DNA of 64,000 nt from IMG/VR virus record IMGVR_UViG_3300032093_000012, positions 32,001 through 96,000 of that record. One strand, 5' to 3'. The notes beneath the pieces were generated by a model. It did no database searches and was not told where the DNA came from. It saw only the letters and a program-made list of their open reading frames with translations. Position numbers and translations under genes: made by a program. Source of the stretch: a virus. The first letter of the stretch is position 1, and each line of letters begins with the position of its first letter. Below, one piece after another: positions 5,928 through 55,279 of this stretch.

Positions 5928-6521
5928 TCAGCTAAATTTGTCAACTATAATAGATTTTATTTTAGCTGTATCAAAGTTCAAGAAAGCTCTATACTTCTTG
6001 ATCTTAAAAGAAACCTGATCCCAGATAGGATCGTCTTTAAGTTTCTTATTCCAATGTTTGAAACAACCAGTCACTTCAACTAAGATGACAAGTGTCTCTA
6101 TTGAAATCTCTTTTCGAAGGTAAAGTTTTAGAAGATGTGGATGATCATACTCTTCTACCAAGAAGTTTTCATCAAAGTTTTCTTTGAGCTTTGATAGTTC
6201 TGACTTAAACATATAAGACAGTGACTCGATCCTCTTGATCCAATCATTGTATCTAGTCTGAGCGACTTCATTATATGCTAGGTCTTTAATCCATACTTTT
6301 TGATCTTCAACGAAATTAGCGATCAAGAAACCCTTAGGATCTTTATGCTTAGCTAATTTTTCGAAGAAGATCCTATCTTTACGAGTGTTAAATGAATCTG
6401 CTCTAACACTAGTCTTACCATTATATTTTATGTAGTCATAACTCTTCTGAGTAAAGTGGTTCTTTAAAGCCACATACTCTTTATAACAATCAAAAGCAGT
6501 CATCTTACGATCTGTATCCAT
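5928..6521 (-). CDS. gp59: Helicase loader
   Basis: Y..Y.ALKNHFT..YDY.KYNGK, RKDR.FFEKLA, ISIETLVIL; between gp33 and gp32. Confidence 0.92.
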   Translation of the reverse strand: MDTDRKMTAFDCYKEYVALKNHFTQKSYDYIKYNGKTSVRADSFNTRKDRIFFEKLAKHKDPKGFLIANFVEDQKVWIKDLAYNEVAQTRYNDWIKRIESLSYMFKSELSKLKENFDENFLVEEYDHPHLLKLYLRKEISIETLVILVEVTGCFKHWNKKLKDDPIWDQVSFKIKKYRAFLNFDTAKIKSIIVDKFS

Positions 6522-6765: not shown

Positions 6766-6857
6766 TGGTAGGGGTGCCCGGATTCGAACCGAGTCAAGAA
6801 CGCTAATCGGGCGCTAAAGGGATTATAAGGCCCTCCCGTGTACCAACACCCACCCCC
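6766..6857 (-). tRNA. Atypical tRNA, anticodon TAT (Ile), long variable arm, 4-nt D-loop
   Basis: GGGGGTG/CACCCCT acceptor plus ACCA, CTCGG-TTCGAAT-CCGGG T-arm, loop CT-TAT-AA. Confidence 0.8.
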
Positions 6858-6864
6858 ATAAACT

Positions 6865-6996: not shown

Positions 6997-7073
6997 TGGC
7001 GATCACTGATGGATTCGAACCATCGACCCACAGCTTAGAAGGCTGTTGCTCTATCCTGCTGAGCTAAGTGACC
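6997..7073 (-). tRNA. tRNA-Arg(TCT)
   Basis: Canonical cloverleaf, loop CT-TCT-AA, GTTCGAATC, encoded CCA. Confidence 0.95.
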
Positions 7074-7082
7074 AATAAACTG

Positions 7083-7428
7083 TGGTGGGGATTCTGTTTC
7101 CAAGCTCCCCACCGAGCTCATGCTTAGGCAGCTACTGCCATAGCGAAAGGTGCATTATCGTTTGCATCTATACGTTGCTTTTGGTCTCTTCGTACTTTTA
7201 CTACGCACGTCGATCCTATTTCGCCCCCAACATAAACACATTACATACAAAGATCTTCATACAAAGAAGTGTGCTTGCGATGTCTAGCAAGATCACCATA
7301 GTATGGTGCATTTGTAAACCAATTCCAAACAAGCCAAATCATTGTAGTATCCTGTGTTTATGGTGGAGGCGGCGGGTACTGCCCCCGCGTCCGAAACGTT
7401 TATTCTGAACGCCTCAACGACCTCAGCA
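7083..7428 (-). ncRNA. ssrA: Circularly permuted two-piece tmRNA, alphaproteobacterial type; tag ANDNAPFAMAVAA
   Basis: Acceptor piece ends GCGGGGGCAGTACCCGCCGCCTCCACCA (7361); coding piece starts GGGGGCGAAATAGGATCGAC (7228); G3:U70 pair; tag frame 7165-7124. Confidence 0.95.
7241..7342 (-). CDS. 33-aa peptide encoded inside the tmRNA intervening segment
   Basis: AGGA SD, then MIWLVWNWFTNAPYYGDLARHRKHTSLYEDLCM*; fills the loop of a 10-bp stem. Confidence 0.6.
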   Translation of the reverse strand: MIWLVWNWFTNAPYYGDLARHRKHTSLYEDLCM

Positions 7429-7432
7429 TAGT

Positions 7433-7440
7433 TATTTATA
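7433..7440 (-). promoter_or_regulatory. T4-type late promoter for tmRNA
   Basis: Exact TATAAATA just upstream of the acceptor piece. Confidence 0.8.
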
Positions 7441-7443
7441 CCA

Positions 7444-7878
7444 CTACTGTCTAATGTTGTAAACAGTTAATTTGTCTTTTTCTACTTTTAATGTACAACT
7501 TTTAATATCTTTAAAACGCGATCCACCGAAGCGTGAGTAGTCACGTCCACCATCTACAAAGAAATCACCGTAGTCTTTATAGTCATGACGATAACGGGAG
7601 TAATATGCAGTATCATCTACGATGATACCATAGAATGGTTCAGTAGCACTAATACCATTAGAGATCATGACATGACCGATATCGTCGAACCAGATAGCAA
7701 AATAGTTCGAGCCTTCTGGATGTGGTTCTTCTGTATAAAAGATAGAGACAGGAAAATTACACCAGTCGCCTTTCTTATTTTTAAGACAACTCTCAAACAC
7801 AAACTTACCGTTGTATTTCTTTTCGATAAGTTCTAGTTGTGCATGAGTAAACATGCTACATTCATTGATGATCTTCAT
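7444..7878 (-). CDS. Hypothetical protein
   Basis: 144-aa ORF, SRYRHDY...VDGGRDY motif, coupled to upstream gene. Confidence 0.75.
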   Translation of the reverse strand: MKIINECSMFTHAQLELIEKKYNGKFVFESCLKNKKGDWCNFPVSIFYTEEPHPEGSNYFAIWFDDIGHVMISNGISATEPFYGIIVDDTAYYSRYRHDYKDYGDFFVDGGRDYSRFGGSRFKDIKSCTLKVEKDKLTVYNIRQ

Positions 7879-26111: not shown

Positions 26112-26186
26112 TGGTGCGCGAGGTAGGACTCGAACCTACACTCAGACCGTTATGAGCGGCCGGCTTCACCTTTAAGCTACTCGCGC
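26112..26186 (-). tRNA. tRNA-CAT, probably Ile2 (lysidine type); Met not excluded
   Basis: Cloverleaf with CCG-CTCATAA-CGG arm, paired G1-C72, CCA. Confidence 0.88.
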
Positions 26187-26193
26187 AATTCCT

Positions 26194-26892
26194 TTATTCT
26201 TTCTTCTCACCCAAGATATTCATGAGAGCCATGAAGATGTTGATGAAGTTAATGTAGAGATTAAAAGCACCGATAGCACCTGCCTTATCTCTTTCACTTT
26301 CATCAAGTTCATCGTATGTATTCTTGAGGTTCTGTGTATCATAAGCAGTAAGACCAACAAATACAATTACAGAGATACAACTAATAATCAATGACATCAT
26401 TGAACTCTGCAGGAATACATTGATTAGACCAGCAATAACAAGACCAATCACGCCCATCATTAGGAAGCTACCAAGGCCGGTCAGATCTCGCTTGGTTGTA
26501 TAACCATACAACGACGTAGCACCAAAAGTAGCAGCAGTAATGAAGAATACCTGAGCAATACTTCCAAGCTTAAAGATCAAGAAGATTGAACTCATGCTAA
26601 GACCCATGACGGCAGCGAATGCTACCAAGAAGACACGAGCAGTATAAGCACTCATGTTCTGGACCATGAAAGCAAAAGCAAGACTCATTAAAAGTGGTGA
26701 GAAGATAGCAATCCACTTAAAGCTTGTACCCCAAATCAACTTAAGAAGATCTGGACTCATGCTAATACCAAGCGATACAAGACCACTGACAGCAAGAGCA
26801 AACGTCATATAGTTATAGACACTAAGCATGAAGTTACGTAGACCCTCATCATAGATGAGTTGACTTCTGACTTCTGAAATAGATGGTTGCAT
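26194..26892 (-). CDS. yccA: Bax inhibitor-1/YccA family membrane protein
   Basis: DEGLR.FM..VYNYM, YGYTTKRDL...GSFL.MG.IG, TAYDTQ, LYINFIN.F. Confidence 0.92.
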   Translation of the reverse strand: MQPSISEVRSQLIYDEGLRNFMLSVYNYMTFALAVSGLVSLGISMSPDLLKLIWGTSFKWIAIFSPLLMSLAFAFMVQNMSAYTARVFLVAFAAVMGLSMSSIFLIFKLGSIAQVFFITAATFGATSLYGYTTKRDLTGLGSFLMMGVIGLVIAGLINVFLQSSMMSLIISCISVIVFVGLTAYDTQNLKNTYDELDESERDKAGAIGAFNLYINFINIFMALMNILGEKKE

Positions 26893-26902
26893 TGTTTTCT
26901 CC

Positions 26903-27379
26903 TTAAGCAGCGATGATTTCTTTTAGACGATCTGCCGCATATGATGCGGCAAAAGCTTCAGGCTTTACTTTAGGTGCAAAGCCACACATACCACGAATAT
27001 AGCCAGTTGCTTGCTGAATAACACAAGAAGATCCGTGCATTTCATCAGGATTAATATCAAGATGAACTTCACAATGACGATCACCGATTGCTTCTAATAG
27101 ATCAATATACATCTGAGATGCACGATATACTTCGTTCATCAGACGAACAGCTGGTCTATCATGACGCTTATCGTAGTCACGTTCTGTATCTACTTTTCCG
27201 AAGACACGACAGCCTCTAGATGAATCCATGTGTACAACAATAGCAACTGTGTAGTCAGCATACCATTTGTCATCCCTACCACGGTAGCGTTCACTATCTG
27301 CTCCAATATAGACGGAGGTGGTAGGCGAAGAATTGTTGATGTATTGAATAACTTCATCGAGATTAAATTCACGTGACAC
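26903..27379 (-). CDS. RNase H-like YkuK/DUF458 family protein
   Basis: YIG.DS, RL..EV, EVH.DIN, KP.A.AAS..AD; GTG start with AGGAG SD. Confidence 0.8.
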   Translation of the reverse strand: MSREFNLDEVIQYINNSSPTTSVYIGADSERYRGRDDKWYADYTVAIVVHMDSSRGCRVFGKVDTERDYDKRHDRPAVRLMNEVYRASQMYIDLLEAIGDRHCEVHLDINPDEMHGSSCVIQQATGYIRGMCGFAPKVKPEAFAASYAADRLKEIIAA

Positions 27380-27396
27380 GATAACTCCTATTTCAA

Positions 27397-27471
27397 TGGA
27401 GCGGGTAGCCGGAATCGAACCGGTCCTAGTCAGCTTGGAAGGCTGATGCACCACCATTATGCCATACCCGC
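27397..27471 (-). tRNA. tRNA-Gly(TCC)
   Basis: GCGGGTA acceptor, loop CT-TCC-AA, TCCA end. Confidence 0.95.
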
Positions 27472-27482
27472 ATTATTAGTAT

Positions 27483-27590
27483 TTACTTCTTGCCCTTACG
27501 CTTGCCCTTCAAGCGACGAGCCTTGCGCTTCTTGCTACCGATCTTGCGACGACCTTTTCGAGGTCTATTCTTATGCGGATGCGCCATCAT
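27483..27590 (-). CDS. Very basic 35-aa peptide
   Basis: AGGAG SD; MMAHPHKNRPRKGRRKIGSKKRKARRLKGKRKGKK*. Confidence 0.7.
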   Translation of the reverse strand: MMAHPHKNRPRKGRRKIGSKKRKARRLKGKRKGKK

Positions 27591-27606
27591 ATACTCCTAG
27601 TTAGAT

Positions 27607-27683
27607 TGGTACCCACGGTCAGGTTCGAACTGACACTTGAGAGATTTTAAGTCTCTTGCCTCTGCCTGTTGGGCTACGTGGGC
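27607..27683 (-). tRNA. tRNA-Leu(TAA) without a long variable arm
   Basis: AGAGA-CTTAAAA-TCTCT arm, 5-nt variable loop, A73 plus CCA, 77 nt. Confidence 0.9.
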
Positions 27684-30346: not shown

Positions 30347-32625
30347 GACTCACAATCCTCTTCATTTACTTCACCAGCTGGCAGCGGCTTTTCTTCATAT
30401 TCACCAGCACCATCATTAGTATTAAAATAATATAGTTGTTTTCCACCATACTTATAAAACATCAGAAGATGACCAATCATCTCAGACATTGGGATCTTTT
30501 CGTCTTCATAAAATCGTGGGTTGTACGAGGTGTTAACGCTGATACCTTGATCGATGAACTTTTGAAGGATGGCGCAGATTTTAAGATAACCCTCTGGTGA
30601 CTTTTGATCCCAGAGCAAGTCATATTTCTTTTTGAGTTTACGAACTTCTGGTACAACTTGCTTCAATACACCATCTTTTGATTGCTTAACTGAAACGAGA
30701 GAGCGCGGTGGCTCGATGCCGTTAGTAGCGTTGCTAATTTGAGCTGAAGTTTCGGATGGCATGAGAGCCATAAGCGTGGAGTTACGGATGCCTGATTTAA
30801 GTACATCCTCACGTAGTGCATCCCATCTGCACGTGTACACCCCCGCAGCAAGTTCGTCAACATCTCGCTTGTAAGTGTCAATCGGGAAGATACCTTGTCC
30901 ATATTTTGTTTCATTTGATTTAGGGCAAGCGCCCTTCTCCTTTGCTAGATCAATTGATGCTTTAATTAGATAATAAGACCATGCTTCAGTATATTCATGA
31001 AGCTTTTGTAAACCTAATGAGTCAATATTTTGATAACTGAGATCGTTGCGAGCGAGCCAGTAAGCAAGATTGATAATTCCAACCCCAAGAGGGCGACGAG
31101 CCATTGTCGAGTTTCTTGCTGCGAGTACTGGATAGTCTTGATAATCAAGTAGCTCATCCAATGCACGCACAGCAAGAGTACAAGGACGTTCAAAATCAGA
31201 AGGATCACGAATCTTTCCCCAATTGATAGCAGCTAATGTACATAGTGAGATTTCTCCATTAGGATCATTAATATCGGTCAGTGGCTTTGTAGGAAGATCG
31301 ATTTCACAACAAAGATTTGATTGTTTAATTGGTGCAACTTCTTTAATAAAAGCACCATGATCATTTGCGTGATCAACATTCATAAGATAGATACGTCCTG
31401 TATCCTTACGTTCCTGCATGAATGCAGAGAACAAATCAACAGCGGGTATTTGTTTCTTTCTGATTTTGGTAGAACGTTCATACTTTTCGTACAATACCCT
31501 GAATTGTTCAGTATTGGTGAAGTATGCATTATATAAGTCAGGGACATCGTTAGGGCTAAACAGAGTAATGTTCCCACCAGAAAGGAGTCGCTCGTACATA
31601 ACTTTATTAAATTGGACACCATAATCTAATCCTCTAATACGATTATCTTCTGTACCCTTGTTATTCTTAAGAACAAGAAGATCTTCTACTTCCAAGTGCC
31701 AGATAGGATAATAAAGTGTTGCCGCACCACCTCGTACACCTCCCTGAGAGCAACTCTTAACCGCCGCTTGAAAAAGCTTGTAGAAGGGGATAACACCAGT
31801 GTGAGTAGCGTCACCACGGCGAATGGGAGAGCCGAGAGCACGAATATTACCAGCACCAATACCAATACCAGCTTTTTGAGAGACGTACTTAACGATTGAA
31901 GAAGATGTGGCATTGATTGAATCCAATGAGTCATCAGTCTCGATAAGTACACACGAGCTAAACTGCTTTTGAGGACTACGGAGACCCGCCATAATAGGAG
32001 TCGGCAACGAAATCTCAAAAGTGCTTGTTGCATCATATAGTTCCTTTACCCATTTAAGTCTTGTTTCTGATGGATAGTTTCTAAATAAGACCATAGCTAT
32101 AAGCATATACGCCATCTGCGGCGTTTCATAGATGTAGCCAGTGGAGCGATTCTTAATTAAATACTTACCCCTGAACTGCTCCATGCCAACATAAGCGATA
32201 GAAAAATCTCGTTCGTGAATAAGTACAGAATTAAGATAATCAAGATCAGCAGGAGAATACCATTCTTTAATATCTTTGTCGTAATATCCAGCATCAATAA
32301 CGCTACGAATATGATCGCGAAGATGAGGGATGTTGTAATCGCCATAGACCTGCTTTCTTAGATGATAATTAATGAGTCTTCCTGCTACATATTGATATGA
32401 TGGAAATTCTTCACTAATTAGATCTGCAGCAGCCTTGATAAGAGTCTCTTGAATGTCGCTTGTTTTAATGCCATTATAAAATTGGATGTGTGATTTGATC
32501 TCTACTTCAGACTCAGACACACCATTTAGACCTTCACATGCCCACGATACAACTTTATGAAACTTGTTGAGATCAAGTGGTTCTTTATTACCATTACGCT
32601 TAGTTACAAGTATTTGCGACATCAT
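30334..32625 (-). CDS. nrdA: Ribonucleotide reductase class Ia alpha subunit
   Basis: ATP cone VTKRNG, QFSSC, SNLCCEI, C-terminal CESC. Confidence 0.98.
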   Translation of the reverse strand: MMSQILVTKRNGNKEPLDLNKFHKVVSWACEGLNGVSESEVEIKSHIQFYNGIKTSDIQETLIKAAADLISEEFPSYQYVAGRLINYHLRKQVYGDYNIPHLRDHIRSVIDAGYYDKDIKEWYSPADLDYLNSVLIHERDFSIAYVGMEQFRGKYLIKNRSTGYIYETPQMAYMLIAMVLFRNYPSETRLKWVKELYDATSTFEISLPTPIMAGLRSPQKQFSSCVLIETDDSLDSINATSSSIVKYVSQKAGIGIGAGNIRALGSPIRRGDATHTGVIPFYKLFQAAVKSCSQGGVRGGAATLYYPIWHLEVEDLLVLKNNKGTEDNRIRGLDYGVQFNKVMYERLLSGGNITLFSPNDVPDLYNAYFTNTEQFRVLYEKYERSTKIRKKQIPAVDLFSAFMQERKDTGRIYLMNVDHANDHGAFIKEVAPIKQSNLCCEIDLPTKPLTDINDPNGEISLCTLAAINWGKIRDPSDFERPCTLAVRALDELLDYQDYPVLAARNSTMARRPLGVGIINLAYWLARNDLSYQNIDSLGLQKLHEYTEAWSYYLIKASIDLAKEKGACPKSNETKYGQGIFPIDTYKRDVDELAAGVYTCRWDALREDVLKSGIRNSTLMALMPSETSAQISNATNGIEPPRSLVSVKQSKDGVLKQVVPEVRKLKKKYDLLWDQKSPEGYLKICAILQKFIDQGISVNTSYNPRFYEDEKIPMSEMIGHLLMFYKYGGKQLYYFNTNDGAGEYEEKPLPAGEVNEEDCESCKI

Positions 32626-49325: not shown

Positions 49326-49961
49326 TTAATCTGCTTGAGGCTTCTTTAGTGAATCTTTGACATGATTGAATAACTCTTTAGCATGTTCTTGACTTACATG
49401 AGAAGGTATTCCCTTTTTAAACTCTTTAAATTTATTAGAACGAGCATGCTCTCTCATCTTAGAAGCAGACATGCCTTCAGTACCCTCTGCATCAGGATCT
49501 CTTGCACCAGCAGATACGACATCGATCTTATGAAAACTAAATGGTATCTGACCAGACTTATTAGGTTTACCATTATAACGATGAAGAAGATCTTTATATT
49601 CTTGTACTCTGTCTTCACCTGCTACCATGATAAGATGATCATGACCTGCTTTGTTTAAACGCTGCGCATGGTGTATGAGTGTAGGTTCAGCTTTAGATGC
49701 AGCTTTAATATTAGTATTTGGAAAGAACCTCTTAGCATGCATCAATTTTTGTTCTGGTGTCAGTGGGTTCTTATCATTATCATGCGTAGCAGATAGCACT
49801 ACTTCATGGTGTGCTTTATGTTTATCAGCAAGTTCATGAACTTTATTAACTAATACTTCATGTCCAGTTGTAGGAGGGTTCATACGACCAAAAGAAAACA
49901 CGACAGGTTTCTTCGGTTTTGGTTGATCTTCTTCTACTATAAAATCTTTAAACTTCTTCAT
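49326..49961 (-). CDS. Cytidyltransferase-like (HxGH/TxGH) nucleotidyltransferase
   Basis: FGRMNPPTTGH, KNPL, G.DR, SAG.RDPD...GMSASKMR. Confidence 0.85.
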   Translation of the reverse strand: MKKFKDFIVEEDQPKPKKPVVFSFGRMNPPTTGHEVLVNKVHELADKHKAHHEVVLSATHDNDKNPLTPEQKLMHAKRFFPNTNIKAASKAEPTLIHHAQRLNKAGHDHLIMVAGEDRVQEYKDLLHRYNGKPNKSGQIPFSFHKIDVVSAGARDPDAEGTEGMSASKMREHARSNKFKEFKKGIPSHVSQEHAKELFNHVKDSLKKPQAD

Positions 49962-51162
49962 CTTTCTTCTTTCCGGCTATGGCACCATAACCAAGCAAGT
50001 TCATCTTCGAGAACTCAGAACGGTTCACGAACTTTGCCATGCTACCTTTATTATGTGCGACGAATCCTTCTGGTCCAGTCTTTTGACCAGCTATACTGTG
50101 TTCAAAGTCAGAGTGTTGTGACATGACACTAGTTAATGTATCTTTTGCTTTTTGAAGATGATGATGAAGCTCTAATACTTTATTAATATGTTCTTTATTA
50201 TCTTGAACATGTTGAAGTTTTTTTGCGAGAGCCTGCCTCTTTTTTTCTTTACCAGCATCTGACTTTAGTTTATCAATCTCTTTTTGATGTTTAGCAGTAA
50301 GATGATCCATGTAGCCTTCATGCGAAGGCTTTCCATCTTTACGAACCATGTCGTTAACATGGCCTTCTAAATCTGCCTCGTGACCCTTAATAGCATCAAA
50401 AGCTTCTGGCTTCATTTTTGAATAAGTCTTCTTAGCATTCTCCATATGATTCATGAATTCTTTTTGTTTATCTGGAGTGTACTTAGAAGAATCAAACTTA
50501 ACTGCTGGATCAATATTATGTACATCAGGGTGATGGGAGAAGTTTTCACGATCAACATGAGGTGTAGCTTCCATATCCTCTAGTTGTTTACCCTTGTACT
50601 TTGTATGTACTACTAAACCAAACTTTGCATGTCTGATTGCCTGACCATGATGAGTATCACGATCTACTGAATACTTTACTGTGTTTGGCTGGAAATGAAA
50701 TTGACCTTTATCACTAGTCACATCTTTTTTTCCAGAGTGCATGACATCACCTTGATATACACCATTTTTAGGTGCTATCTTAGGGAGATGTTGCAAAGCA
50801 TGTTTTAGCTTCTCTGCTAATCCGGGTGCATGACCATGATTATCATCGATGTCTTTATCAGTGTAATTTATTTTAGGATTCTTATTGAAAGCAGACTTAG
50901 ATGCAACAAAGAAACGACCATTCTTTGGATGATAACCAAAAACAATAGATGGTGCACCATCATATTTAGTTGAGATATGTGTGTCTGTCTTTTTACCAAG
51001 CAAAGCTTTATGCGCATTATCCAGCATCTCACCAGCTGCAGATACACCTTCATGACCACCATGTATTGGCATGTCTTCAAGGTGTGTGAGATGTTTTAGT
51101 TTCTTACCAGAACCAGATTCATCTGTTTCTTCTGTCAAGAATATGTTGAAAGATAATACCAT
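49948..51162 (-). CDS. Conserved T4-like protein with KxDG ligase-like motif (DUF6267-like)
   Basis: HL.HLED, KYDGAPS, FFV.SKS.FN, QGD, PEGFV, K.V.R.EFS; TATAAATA at 51182-51189. Confidence 0.7.
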   Translation of the reverse strand: MVLSFNIFLTEETDESGSGKKLKHLTHLEDMPIHGGHEGVSAAGEMLDNAHKALLGKKTDTHISTKYDGAPSIVFGYHPKNGRFFVASKSAFNKNPKINYTDKDIDDNHGHAPGLAEKLKHALQHLPKIAPKNGVYQGDVMHSGKKDVTSDKGQFHFQPNTVKYSVDRDTHHGQAIRHAKFGLVVHTKYKGKQLEDMEATPHVDRENFSHHPDVHNIDPAVKFDSSKYTPDKQKEFMNHMENAKKTYSKMKPEAFDAIKGHEADLEGHVNDMVRKDGKPSHEGYMDHLTAKHQKEIDKLKSDAGKEKKRQALAKKLQHVQDNKEHINKVLELHHHLQKAKDTLTSVMSQHSDFEHSIAGQKTGPEGFVAHNKGSMAKFVNRSEFSKMNLLGYGAIAGKKKDEEV

Positions 51163-51184: not shown

Positions 51185-52198
51185 TTATAGTCTTTCTAAC
51201 AAGACTCTTAGATACTTAGCGCCTGTGTCAGTAGCAGTCGTGCCTCTAAATTGAAAGTCGACTTTATACTTTGCGCCATTAATGTTAGCTGAAACTTTTA
51301 TAGATCCACCTTTTCTTTTTCCAAGTTCCGGATAAGAATAAGAAGATTCACTTAAATTATTTACGGTTACTTGATTGCTGCCGCCTATATCTTTAACTAA
51401 TACATCACCAGTTCTTTTTTTATGAACGAAGACTACATTTGTACCTATAGCCTGTTCTAGTACATCTGCTAAGTTTTTAGCAACTGTTGCATAATTTGGT
51501 GTTTGTGTTTGGCATGCATATCCTTCACCAAATCCAACCATCTTTAAACCTTCGAAACCAAAAAACTCGTTTATATCAACCTGTGTATTTTTATTTAAAA
51601 AATACTTTTCTAATGCAGCATTTAGAACATAATATGTTTGCGACATCTTAAGAGAAAGAAAATGTAAATCTTTGCCATTTTTTTGTATAGTTACGTCTGT
51701 TAGTGTTTTTCCATCAGACTTGCTAATATCTAAACGGGTTCCAGTGAACACAACTTCTCTTTTTTGATTCTTATAACCTTCTCTCGTTGCACTGTACGCA
51801 TTACTTTGAGTTAAGTCTAACTTTTTCTGCAATTCATTAATAACATCTGGATGTTTGATATCTGTCATATCAGCACCAGCAAAATAATTATTGAGATCTT
51901 TTTCTATCTCTGATTCGAAAGCTATACCGCCCTGACCTTTAGCAATGATAGGTTTAAAGATGATATCTGTTTTAAAATCAGGAACTGTTAAGACATCTAT
52001 TGATCCAGATTTACTCCTTTTAAAGACACTCGTGAAGTCAACTTTACTGCTTCCTAAAAGCTTCTCAACTTCTTTCTTTGTATCTTCTCTATTCTTTGAC
52101 TTAACATAGATATCATTCTTCTGTAGTAATACTACAGCGTCATTTTTAAACTTCTCTTGTATAAGATTTTTTAATACTTCTATATTTTTACTTGCCAT
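51185..52198 (-). CDS. Hypothetical protein, possible PD-(D/E)XK-type nuclease
   Basis: G..FE, TD.....LSLK; TATAAATA at 52222-52229. Confidence 0.55.
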   Translation of the reverse strand: MASKNIEVLKNLIQEKFKNDAVVLLQKNDIYVKSKNREDTKKEVEKLLGSSKVDFTSVFKRSKSGSIDVLTVPDFKTDIIFKPIIAKGQGGIAFESEIEKDLNNYFAGADMTDIKHPDVINELQKKLDLTQSNAYSATREGYKNQKREVVFTGTRLDISKSDGKTLTDVTIQKNGKDLHFLSLKMSQTYYVLNAALEKYFLNKNTQVDINEFFGFEGLKMVGFGEGYACQTQTPNYATVAKNLADVLEQAIGTNVVFVHKKRTGDVLVKDIGGSNQVTVNNLSESSYSYPELGKRKGGSIKVSANINGAKYKVDFQFRGTTATDTGAKYLRVLLERL

Positions 52199-52234
52199 TA
52201 CTTCACCTTATTTTTTATAGATATTTATAAAGTG

Positions 52235-52260
52235 AAAAGGGCGAGCCTTTCGACTCGCCC
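52235..52260 (-). terminator. Intrinsic terminator
   Basis: GGGCGAGTC-GAAA-GGCTCGCCC-TTTT. Confidence 0.85.
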
Positions 52261-52388
52261 CAATGTGCAACATGGACGGGTGGAACCCCACCATTTATCC
52301 CGTCAATTCCAATCCTGATTTATCAGCTTGCCACTTGTGCTGCAGACACAAACGTGTTGCATTGCCGCTCTATTGAAGCGGAACTGTT
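52235..52388 (-). ncRNA. Candidate structured non-coding RNA
   Basis: TATAAATA at 52391-52398, nested stems, terminator, no SD-led ORF. Confidence 0.6.
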
Positions 52389-52393
52389 ATTAT

Positions 52394-52600
52394 TTATACT
52401 TCAGGCAGCAGTTTTTCCTGAGGGATATTAATTTTTTTTAGCATAAATGATGGCGTCCAACCATCAAAAGCGCCGCCTAAGTTTAGATGACGAAGAAGTT
52501 TTCTTGCTGGTTCCAACCCGTCATAGTTACGAATAATCTGGTTCGTAGCAGTTTCTACGACTCCAACACCATTTTCATTCATCTTAATCTTATAGTTCAT
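52394..52600 (-). CDS. Hypothetical protein
   Basis: LN.GG.FDGWTP.F motif; coupled to gp41. Confidence 0.7.
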   Translation of the reverse strand: MNYKIKMNENGVGVVETATNQIIRNYDGLEPARKLLRHLNLGGAFDGWTPSFMLKKINIPQEKLLPEV

Positions 52601-54021
52601 TATTTAAACCCCACAAATGCTTCTTTACTAAAGTTAAACTTTGGCTTTGGAAGATTTCTTTCTGTATCTTCCGAACCAAACTTGGAATTGTCAAACACAG
52701 ACTTATTCTTTGGACCATCCAAAAGATCTTCCTGTGCTGATTGTTCTACGTCATAAAGCCGCATTTTACTGCGATCAATGCCAAGGAAAAACCTACGATT
52801 AGACCCTGGATCATTATAGCGATTCTTGAGTTGCTTAACCAAGATTTGATTTCGTGATTCCATTTCTTCGTTTGTTTGGAGTCCAAACATAAAATCAGCT
52901 GTGGCCGGGAGTCCAAAGGATTCTGATGTATCTTCCAATCCCAAGTCGCTGCTCGAATATCCACCTCGAGTTGTTTGAGTCGCACTGACGATAGGTACAT
53001 TGAACTCCACGGCAAGTCCTCGTAACTCTTCTGCGATTGCTTTGATATAGGTATAAGAATTGACGTTGGCTCCATACTTCATCCTCGAAGACATGCAGAT
53101 GTTTAGATAATCAATATAGATGATATCTGGTTTAAAGTTCTTCTTGATCTTCAATTCATTAAGAAGATGCCTGAAGTTTGCAGATCCAGCACAGGCTGTT
53201 GGATATTCTTTAACAATCAACTTGCCTGTAGTCTTAGACATAAGCTTCTCGATCTTACCCTTATAAGATTGTAGTGGTATGATCTCGAGCTGATCGAGAG
53301 GGATATCAAGAAGGTTAGAATCAATACGTTCAGCGATGCGTTCTTCTGCCATTTCCATCGTGATGTAAAGGACGTTATATCCCTTAGTCAAGTTAGATGC
53401 AGCACAATGACACATAAACAATGACTTACCAACACCAGTACCAGCAAGAGCAATGTTTAGTGTCTTGTTTGGTAATCCGCCGCCAGTAATTTCATTGAAG
53501 TAGTGCAAGTCGAACGGGATTCGACTTTCTTTCTTGTGGTAAAACTCATAACGTGCATCCGAGTCTTCAAGGAAGTCATGCCCAATATGCGTATCAAAAG
53601 ATACTGCAAGTGCATCTGATAAGATCTGTGGAATGGCCCCTTTAGAGGCTTTCCCACTCTTATCATCCAATATTTGAATGGAGGCCATGATCGCGTTGTA
53701 GACCGCTTTTTCTTGACAGAACTTTTCTGTTTGGTCAAGTAACCATTGGATTTCAGTCTTCTCATCCGGTTTTAGCTCCGAGATCTTATCACGAGTCTTC
53801 TTAAATACTTCTTCATTGATACCATCTTTGTTTGATAGATCGATGATTAGTGCTTCTTTAGTTGGGAATGTGTTGTACTTCTTAACATACTCATCAACAA
53901 GATTAAATGCTAATTTATCAGAATAATCTTGAAAGTATTCTTCTTTCAAAAAAGGTATAACTTTTCTACCGTAATCTTCGTTTGTTAGAAGATTACCAAA
54001 GATTAGTTGTTCAATAGCCAT
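52600..54021 (-). CDS. gp41: Replicative DNA helicase
   Basis: AGTGVGKS, TMEMAEE.IAERID, KEYPT, SATQTTR, SESFGLPATAD. Confidence 0.97.
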   Translation of the reverse strand: MAIEQLIFGNLLTNEDYGRKVIPFLKEEYFQDYSDKLAFNLVDEYVKKYNTFPTKEALIIDLSNKDGINEEVFKKTRDKISELKPDEKTEIQWLLDQTEKFCQEKAVYNAIMASIQILDDKSGKASKGAIPQILSDALAVSFDTHIGHDFLEDSDARYEFYHKKESRIPFDLHYFNEITGGGLPNKTLNIALAGTGVGKSLFMCHCAASNLTKGYNVLYITMEMAEERIAERIDSNLLDIPLDQLEIIPLQSYKGKIEKLMSKTTGKLIVKEYPTACAGSANFRHLLNELKIKKNFKPDIIYIDYLNICMSSRMKYGANVNSYTYIKAIAEELRGLAVEFNVPIVSATQTTRGGYSSSDLGLEDTSESFGLPATADFMFGLQTNEEMESRNQILVKQLKNRYNDPGSNRRFFLGIDRSKMRLYDVEQSAQEDLLDGPKNKSVFDNSKFGSEDTERNLPKPKFNFSKEAFVGFK

Positions 54022-54030
54022 TCGTTTTCC

Positions 54031-54249
54031 TTAGTAGCTAATTTGAAGATCTTTTAGACTAAAAACACCAATTACCCAATTCTCTGCAGCATCTTCGACA
54101 TAATGCATAGATCGATCTGGAAATACACGGTGTTCTTCAATATCATTAATCTTATAGATTACACCATAATCGTTTCCATCATGCACTACGCGTGCACTAC
54201 GATTGGAATATTCATCAACACCCTTGTACTCATGCAGCGTCTTCATCAT
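54031..54249 (-). CDS. Hypothetical protein
   Basis: S.HY.EDAAENWV.G; likely start 54249. Confidence 0.65.
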   Translation of the reverse strand: MMKTLHEYKGVDEYSNRSARVVHDGNDYGVIYKINDIEEHRVFPDRSMHYVEDAAENWVIGVFSLKDLQISY

Positions 54250-55279
54250 CAACCTCCATGATTGAACCAACTGCCATCTTATAAGTATTTTTGATATAAT
54301 CAGCAAAATCTGTATCCTGGAACATCTTGGTCCAAAATTCTTTATTATCTACAATGTCGCCAGCACGCATTGAAGGCTGTCTGACTTCGCCTGTTTCTTT
54401 ATCTACGGTAGCATACCAACCAGCTTTAGGCTTAACAATGTAGCCACCATCAATAGCAACATCCAATAGGCCAGACCACCTATTAATACCTCCATCATAA
54501 CTGACCGTGATAGGGATCTTAGACTTTTCTTTAACATAACGGGACTTCTCCACGTTGATTACGAAATGGTAGCCAGAGATACCATCCGCATCTTTTTCCT
54601 GTTGACGACCAAGGATCCAGATATTATCTGATCCATAGTAAGATCCAGTACCACCGCCAACGATATCCTTAGGATAGAGACCGATCTCCTTATATGTATG
54701 GTTGATCACTATCATAGGAATATCTTTAAGAGAAAGATGTGGTGTAATCATACGGAAGAGTGACTTAAGTTGTTTAGCACGAGACATGTCAGCAACTGAC
54801 TTACCATCAAGTGCATCCTCAACTTCTTTCTTAGAAGCAAGGTTACCAATAGAGTCGATGATAATCATGACATGATCATTGCGATCAAGCTCTTTCATCT
54901 GAGCCATAATATCAAACTTCAATTCTTCGATGTCGGTGATAGGAGTATGCACAACAGACTCAAAAGGAATATTAAAGGTACTAAAATAGGACTGAGGAGT
55001 GCCGAACTCAGAATCGTAAAAAAGAACAATGCCATCTTTGTACTTCCTTAGAAAGGATGATGCCATTAAAAGAGCAAAGCCAGTCTTAAAGTGCTTAGAT
55101 GGTCCAGCAAGCATTGTAAGGCCGGGTGTGATACCACCATCAACTGAGCCAGACAACGCAACGTTGATCATGGGTACAGGAGTAGGGATCATATCCTTCT
55201 TTGCAAAGACTTTACTGTCAAGTAGAGTAGATGTAAGATCAATCGTAGAATTCTTAATAAGCTTATCTTTAAGTGACAT
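54230..55279 (-). CDS. uvsX: RecA-like recombinase
   Basis: AGPSKHFKT, FYDSEFG, DSIGNLASKKE, NHTY. Confidence 0.97.
   Translation of the reverse strand: MSLKDKLIKNSTIDLTSTLLDSKVFAKKDMIPTPVPMINVALSGSVDGGITPGLTMLAGPSKHFKTGFALLMASSFLRKYKDGIVLFYDSEFGTPQSYFSTFNIPFESVVHTPITDIEELKFDIMAQMKELDRNDHVMIIIDSIGNLASKKEVEDALDGKSVADMSRAKQLKSLFRMITPHLSLKDIPMIVINHTYKEIGLYPKDIVGGGTGSYYGSDNIWILGRQQEKDADGISGYHFVINVEKSRYVKEKSKIPITVSYDGGINRWSGLLDVAIDGGYIVKPKAGWYATVDKETGEVRQPSMRAGDIVDNKEFWTKMFQDTDFADYIKNTYKMAVGSIMEVDDEDAA

Follow-up and report, generated by a model that had tools for sequence, protein, structure and literature searches.

The question raised by this locus is what occupies a 164-nt segment (52235-52398) on the minus strand of a 64,000-nt stretch of viral DNA, positions 32,001 to 96,000 of IMG/VR record IMGVR_UViG_3300032093_000012 (hereafter the window). 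The segment lies in a minus-strand gene order of uvsX, a small open reading frame (ORF), gp41, the small gene c2, the element itself, a 337-aa ORF, a DUF6267 protein and a cytidylyltransferase-like protein. An earlier note, made from the letters of the window, had proposed that the element encodes a structured non-coding RNA of about 150 nt, an orphan provided with a late promoter and a terminator of its own, and the comparison with homologues described here bears this out, with a promoter in 98/98 homologues, a terminator in 84/96 and a homologue of the late sigma factor gp55 encoded in the genome (E = 3.7e-19). The element was also described as richer in GC than its flanks, and its GC content is indeed 47.6%, compared with 37.3% for the whole window and 30-37% for the flanking DNA. 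The best explanation of the locus is an independent small-RNA gene, belonging to an undescribed family, in uncultured T4-like phages related to the pelagimyophages.

Folded as a single sequence, the element gave -56 kcal/mol with z = -2.84, modestly beyond chance, and because this fold is only moderately unusual, the case was built on the comparison of homologues. Neighbourhoods of gp41 relatives in IMG/VR yielded seven close copies and several distant ones. A covariance model (R1) was built from eleven neighbourhood copies and used together with two scans for motifs in the viral collection, and the refined model is referred to as R2. The motif scans and gp41 neighbourhoods gave at least 153 homologues in IMG/VR contigs, of which 122 were distinct and 99 remained after clustering at 93% identity. 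Counts reported for the homologue set (96-99 sequences, or 137 of 152 loci) are counts among the matches listed, and totals for the family are lower bounds. Since 96 of the 99 loci newly fetched in the second scan were true matches, the actual family must be bigger than this sample. Each of the four larger records that were searched contained the RNA once.

In the 99 model-aligned homologues, 88.9% of the cells at paired positions held standard pairs, compared with 63.6 ± 0.6% in shuffled alignments, and changes on both sides were found in 28 of the 29 pairs. Sliding the 3′ partners by one to three columns lowered pairing to 35-53%. Because an alignment fitted to a model favours its own structure, the measurement was repeated on a sequence-only MAFFT alignment, in which 80.2% of cells were paired against 63.4 ± 0.5% after shuffling. 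Mutual information with average-product correction (MI-APC), calculated over all variable column pairs, placed annotated helix pairs in all of the top 16 positions and suggested no tertiary or further pairings. The covariation read from these alignments, of homologues lying downstream of gp41, is strong.

The core of the RNA is a four-way junction of about 100 nt formed by helices P1 to P4, all on the minus strand. P1, the closing helix, consists of nine pairs (UGCAACACG/CAUGUUGCA, 52353-52361 with 52266-52274) with one C.A mismatch in the window copy; all nine show two-sided changes, and pairing is 91.5% when the alignment is guided by the model and 89.1% with MAFFT only. P2 (52334-52352) corresponds to the stem noted earlier as TTGTG/CACAA and is a hairpin of 7 bp with the loop CUGCA, in which 7/7 pairs show two-sided changes and 84% of cells are paired. 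P3 (52315-52326) is a short hairpin of varying length that aligns poorly (62% paired), and the segment between the conserved GGCA and GGAA motifs nevertheless forms a hairpin of at least 3 bp in 90/98 members. The stem predicted earlier as CTGAT/ATCAG is present as P3, with the window copy pairing as CUGA/UCAG. The P4 arm (52275-52304) is made up of P4a, a 5-nt A-rich bulge on the 5′ side, P4b and a loop. P4a (GACGGG/CCCGUC, 52299-52304 with 52275-52280) has 6 bp, of which five covary, and is 99.8% paired (99.3% with MAFFT only), while P4b and its loop (UGG-UGGGGUU-CCA, loop at 52284-52290) contribute three further pairs that all covary and are 99.3% paired (98.3% with MAFFT only). Some members carry an extra hairpin within the P4 bulge, a lineage-specific addition. 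Upstream of the core, a leader hairpin (CCGCUU-CAAUA-GAGCGG, with the stem CCGCU/AGCGG, 52365-52381) is seen in the fold and is confined to the close clade of the window, namely the window copy and L002-L008, where compensating changes occur (CCGUC/GACGG in L002 and L003); it is missing from most other members, in which P1 begins 7-16 nt past the promoter. The hairpin, closing stem, enclosed stems and GAAA-capped terminator were thus all found where the earlier note had placed them on the minus strand.

Two alternative pairings that had been suggested fared differently. A GGAAU/GUUCC pseudoknot was rejected, as the CC covaries with the GG on the 5′ side of the loop, forming P4b, and GGAA stays fixed; in L042 the arm reads CAC-UGGGGUU-GUG and in L032 CAG...CUG, each with GGAA unchanged. 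The GGUGG/CCACC pairing stood in part, as the 3-bp UGG/CCA helix of P4b, and its remaining bases belong to the UGGGGUU loop. The pairs of P4b vary as a helix should, the N-N′ pair being CG in 47 members, AU in 30 and UA in 19, the second changing from GC to AU five times and the third from GC to CG once, with GGAA constant throughout.

In P4a and P4b, G-U and U-G pairs are frequent and non-canonical cells nearly absent, which assigns the pairing to the minus strand only, and this strand-specificity rules out an element acting at the level of DNA. A coding role was also rejected, as the ORFs over the element are chance frames of at most 37 aa, substitutions are compensatory in pairs, and insertions and deletions do not come in threes.

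Three unpaired features are conserved: J2/3 contains GGCA, J3/4 contains GGAA(U)A, and P4 is capped by UGGGGUU. J2/3 (UGGCAAG, 52327-52333) holds the near-invariant GGCA, with column counts of G99, G98, C97 and A94 in the 99 homologues, and in J3/4 (GAUUGGAAUU, 52305-52314) the GGAA at 52307-52310 is found in 99/99. The loop UGGGGUU is invariant in the pattern-selected sets. Because the two scans had required the GGAA and UGGGGUU motifs, 80 loci were drawn by the c2 protein alone, with no RNA pattern, and among the 50 distinct sequences in this set GGAA was present in 50/50, UGGGGUU in 46/50 and GGCA in 44/50. The exceptions form a variant subtype with the loop UGGUGGUU and without the GGCA/P3 segment. 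In the loci of this subtype (L361, L364, L365, L379, L383, L386 and L392, at about 1490-1811) the P4 loop has 8 nt, P4b covaries (CGA/UCG), an A/G-rich stretch stands in place of GGCA and P3, and R2 scores are 21-31 bits. A tetramolecular G-quadruplex formed through UGGGGU was also considered, and its putative four-tier version is disfavoured by the variant loop.

This arrangement, in which bases are invariant in the joining strands and one loop and the helices otherwise covary freely, is the typical architecture of an aptamer, and the junction might therefore be a stand-alone sensor or sponge in trans whose ligand would be a metabolite or signalling nucleotide. Related phages, like their streamlined hosts, rely heavily on riboswitches (PMC9004378). 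We consider such an aptamer unlikely, given that none of the riboswitch classes in Rfam 15 was matched, there is no expression platform, the neighbouring genes are varied and mostly of unassigned function and so suggest no ligand, and natural small-molecule RNA sponges are not an established class. The invariant unpaired nucleotides of the junction would equally resemble a catalytic core, and small ribozymes are common in phage genomes. A new self-cleaving or otherwise catalytic class nevertheless seems quite improbable, as the window and 14 diverse members gave no match to the hammerhead, twister, twister-sister, hatchet, pistol or HDV-like models, a single copy with its own promoter and terminator is untypical of self-cleaving ribozymes, and there is no obvious substrate or repeat context.

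The ends of the RNA are defined by a promoter and a terminator that are conserved with the core. The T4-type late promoter TATAAATA (52391-52398, minus strand) contains the TAA stop of the c2 ORF, and transcription is predicted to start at about A52385, an estimate that uses the geometry of T4 promoters. The promoter is exact upstream of P1 in 70/98 homologues and differs by one or two bases in the other 28/98, compared with a background of 0.007 per 64 nt, and the modal distance from its end to P1 is 7-11 nt. With TATAAATA at a fixed short distance and gp55 in the genome, the element has the make-up of a T4-type late transcription unit and is predicted to be expressed late, TATAAAT being the late promoter of this phage group (PMC9004378). 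The intrinsic terminator (GGGGCGAGUC-GAAA-GGCUCGCCCU, 52235-52261) combines a 10-bp GC-rich stem with a U-tract, and a terminator follows the core in 84/96 homologues with a median of -17.6 kcal/mol, at a median of 3 nt past the end of the model. Outside the RNA, a second TATAAATA (52222-52229, minus strand) serves as the separate late promoter of the next gene, as had been suggested; its form TTTATAAATAT is invariant in the first 11 homologues and common downstream of the RNA in the wider set.

The address of the RNA is fixed, just past the uvsX-gp41-c2 replication module. The helicase gene gp41 was on the same fragment in 137 of 152 RNA loci, and in these the RNA always lay downstream of the 3′ end of gp41, at a median of 389 nt; almost all of the remaining loci were cut close to the RNA. 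A same-strand gene follows the RNA in 118 loci, and in the other 19/137 the RNA is inverted: it converges with c2 and gp41, and every gene after it is on the opposite strand. Downstream genes vary widely between loci. In one distant member, L052, a tRNA lies on the opposite strand after the terminator of the RNA (6198-6284, minus).

This setting bears directly on whether the element works in cis. An aptamer-like domain with a terminator within a few nucleotides and then, in 118 loci, a same-strand gene could describe a riboswitch or attenuator, by which terminator read-through to the late gene downstream would be controlled. The earlier note had thought a riboswitch role less likely, and the homologues point the same way: the RNA is inverted in 19 of the 137 loci, the downstream genes are not conserved, and the conserved late promoter of the next gene sits past the terminator. 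An antiterminator would further require that part of the core compete for the terminator, and complementarity of the terminator 5′ arm to the core was no better than that of shuffled arms (mean z = +0.27, with 1% below -2), while the terminator was intact in 84/84 full-length minimum-free-energy (MFE) folds. Control of read-through in cis is accordingly highly improbable.

The element might also be no separate gene at all, and serve as a 3′-untranslated-region (3′-UTR) element for stability or termination of the uvsX-gp41-c2 operon. The c2 stop lies inside the promoter and no terminator separates c2 from the element, which indicates that in same-orientation loci the terminator of the element also ends the upstream operon. 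However, the element has kept its own promoter in 98/98 homologues and persists where it is inverted and convergent with the operon, and protection of a 3′ end does not call for an elaborate conserved junction. Natural deletions add to this, as in L022 (4110-4170) and L027 (5600-5650) c2 is followed by a late-promoter-like box and then at once by a terminator, with the whole junction gone, so a plain terminator suffices in these lineages. We regard a role confined to the 3′-UTR as very unlikely. Because L022 and L027 keep c2, the promoter and the terminator without the core, the RNA is dispensable in some lineages and is an accessory gene. With its own promoter and terminator, inverted loci, varied downstream genes and no antiterminator signal, the element is best seen as a stand-alone, trans-acting RNA; on the same grounds a terminator-based riboswitch is in effect excluded and a pure 3′-UTR role is unlikely.

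In the inverted subgroup, a TTGACA or TTGACT box stands 15 nt upstream of TATAAATA in 6/16 loci (L104, L121, L125, L182, L242 and L278), compared with only 2/95 same-orientation loci that score at least 5 of 6 for a TTGACA-type box. These promoter sequences suggest that the inverted subgroup may have a dual sigma-70 and late promoter, in which case the RNA may be made early as well.

The usual upstream neighbour of the RNA, c2 (52394-52600, minus strand; 68 aa in the window), ends inside its promoter and might be thought of as its partner. It belongs to a virus-only family of about 65 aa (MNYK..., ...LNLGGGFDGWTPxFF) located directly after gp41 (alignment A7), with at least 489 relatives in IMG/VR, no match among deposited phages by tblastn and no Pfam or PHROG family. 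It was found in 134 of 152 RNA loci, and in loci selected by c2 the RNA came directly after it in 75/80. The AlphaFold model of c2 (pLDDT 86) has three strands and a helix, and a Foldseek search with this model against the PDB and the ESM Atlas returned nothing informative, with no PDB match. As there was no informative fold match and as both c2 and the RNA are also found at loci that lack the other, c2 was set aside as the RNA-binding partner.

With respect to known families, the window locus and 14 diverse members were scanned against the 4227 covariance models of Rfam 15, and none matched at the gathering threshold, in agreement with the statement that the family was not recognised. Matches at E up to 5-10 were weak, specific to single members, driven by the terminator and far below gathering scores. 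BLAST of the RNA region against deposited phages was empty, R1 had no match in the cultured phages Melnitz, C48C1 or Stenotrophomonas DLP_6, R2 had none in T4 or HTVC008M, and four bacterial contigs from metagenome-assembled genomes, returned by a strict pattern scan of 596 Gb of genomes, were not confirmed by R2. Within the reach of these searches, no member of the family lies outside an uncultured clade of T4-like phages. Our search of the literature found no description of the motif.

Since the 5′ and 3′ ends form a closing helix and P4 abuts the 3′ strand of P1 like a T arm, a mimic of tRNA or tmRNA that engages a tRNA-binding enzyme or the translation machinery was also considered, the more so as the phage carries tRNAs and a permuted tmRNA. 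The segment GGUGGGGUUCC (52281-52291, minus strand) matches, base for base, the 11 nt with which E. coli tRNA-Tyr begins (printed in PMC13416341). Here, however, this 11-mer is folded as a hairpin, and the identity is probably a coincidence. ARAGORN and RF00005 found the other tRNAs of the window and nothing at 52235-52398, and tmRNA models matched the window at 7083-7467 only. P1 has 9 bp where a tRNA would have 7, the P4 loop is UGGGGUU, and neither a T- or D-loop consensus nor a conserved 3′ NCCA is present. Four member records (two near-complete and two about 60-65% complete) contained no SmpB gene, and the same four (G000-G003) contained no Ro60/TROVE gene, nor did the Rfam scans find a Y-RNA family at the locus. 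Such mimicry is thus also quite doubtful. A likeness of GGAUUGGAAUUGACGGGAU to the 5′ region of tmRNA was rejected because it is limited to the clade of the window and is unsupported by the tmRNA models.

We favour, with somewhat more confidence than doubt, the reading that the RNA is made late and that its conserved core binds a protein in trans. Redirection of host RNA polymerase by gp55 would lead to transcription from about A52385 to the terminator, and the stable product of about 150 nt would be abundant in the late phase of infection; at same-orientation loci, read-through from gp41-c2 could also include the RNA at the 3′ end of that message. The unpaired purines that do not vary would come together with the G-rich loop in a single tertiary core and so form a specific binding surface. 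Acting in trans, the RNA would most likely meet a protein, either a phage partner or a host factor that it sequesters. Base pairing to a nucleic-acid target is less likely, and an antisense role is probably not what the RNA performs, since the phage genome contains sites complementary to the conserved single strands only as often as chance predicts and the conserved bases lie in the junctions and closed loop of a compact fold.

Several points weigh against protein binding in trans. The promoter, the RNA ends and action in trans are all deduced from sequence, and a compact junction with invariant unpaired bases would suit an aptamer or a ribozyme equally well. The invariance of GGAA and UGGGGUU comes partly from scans that required these motifs, which is partly offset by the gp41- and c2-selected sets. 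The modelled c2 has no recognisable RNA-binding fold, and either of c2 and the RNA can be present alone. That the RNA is so closely linked to c2 and gp41 may be no more than a sign of common descent in genomes that keep their gene order.

A bolder proposal is that the RNA represents a new functional class, either a stand-alone binder, made by the phage in large amounts late in infection, whose GGCA/GGAA/UGGGGUU core captures a universal host component or signal, or a new catalytic centre; we consider this possible but distinctly speculative. If it were true, the core could target a protein of defence or RNA metabolism, for instance, or else a signalling nucleotide, and the phage would be using RNA as a counter-defence or take-over factor. 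Few viruses on Earth are as common as the T4-like phages that infect abundant aquatic bacteria, and very few RNA genes other than tRNAs are known in these phages. At least 150 copies, a covarying junction, near-complete conservation of three single-stranded motifs, a promoter and terminator of its own and a fixed address next to genes of replication and recombination make this RNA a good candidate for experiments, and carry the signature of a specific RNA role that fits poorly to the categories of riboswitch, antisense RNA and tRNA. The alignment and covariance model can be used for annotation and for the mapping of metatranscriptome reads.

The genes around the RNA place the window phage more closely. 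The source record is 167 kb long and roughly 99% complete. On the minus strand, uvsX (54230-55279) is followed by the gp41-type DnaB-like replicative helicase (52600-54021; phrog_19, E = 6e-128), which is the conserved anchor gene upstream of the RNA and is about 60% identical to the gp41 of cyanomyoviruses and Melnitz. After the RNA come the 337-aa ORF (51185-52198, with its ATG at 52198) and then the DUF6267 protein (404 aa) and the cytidylyltransferase-like protein (211 aa) at 49326-51162. The latter two were found again a few genes downstream of the RNA in 17/50 loci, and in some loci they form one fused protein (677 aa in L172, 6749-8782). A permuted two-piece alpha-type tmRNA is encoded at 7083-7467 on the minus strand (111 bits), for which ARAGORN gave the tag peptide ANDNAPFAMAVAA; tRNA-Arg and tRNA-Ile adjoin it, and tRNA-Met, tRNA-Gly and tRNA-Leu lie at other places, the tmRNA and tRNA regions being 7000-7467, 6766-6859 and 26112-27683, all minus strand. 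Because a permuted tmRNA, together with curli-pore genes, is a described trait of Melnitz-like phages and pelagimyophages (PMC9004378), the window phage is placed near these groups.

Small structured RNAs encoded by phages are a known category, and the novelty here lies at the level of the RNA family. The pRNA of phi29 is a stand-alone RNA of about 120-170 nt with a multi-helix junction that is part of a protein machine and does not regulate genes. The Rfam scans gave no pRNA match, however, and the phage type differs; the intermolecular loop pairing of pRNA also has no counterpart, as nothing in the present RNA complements its conserved loop. T4-type packaging motors are not known to use RNA. 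T4 itself encodes two stable structured small RNAs of unknown function, species 1 and 2 (RNA C and RNA D), which sit in the tRNA cluster and are processed from a tRNA precursor. Since R2 had no match in the T4 genome (NC_000866) at E up to 1, these are not homologous to the RNA described here. The glutamine (glnA-type) riboswitch is a three-stem pseudoknot, compared with the four-way junction found here. Its occurrence in Melnitz-like and pelagimyophage genomes (PMC9004378) makes it likewise a structured RNA of the same broad phage group, but our RNA matches neither the glnA nor the Downstream-peptide model, has no cis target and is absent from Melnitz and HTVC008M. A likeness in kind is to the orphan motifs of phages and metagenomes (Weinberg et al. 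2010, PMC2864571; the csRNA catalogue of IMG/VR by Fremin et al. 2023, PMC10690425), which, like this RNA, were discovered from sequence, are supported by covariation, are restricted to phages or metagenomes and have no assigned function. It matches none of those curated in Rfam 15, and the IMG/VR catalogue, with its 8,495 unnamed candidates, may already include it. Unlike most of these candidates, it comes with a defined promoter, a terminator and a fixed genomic address.

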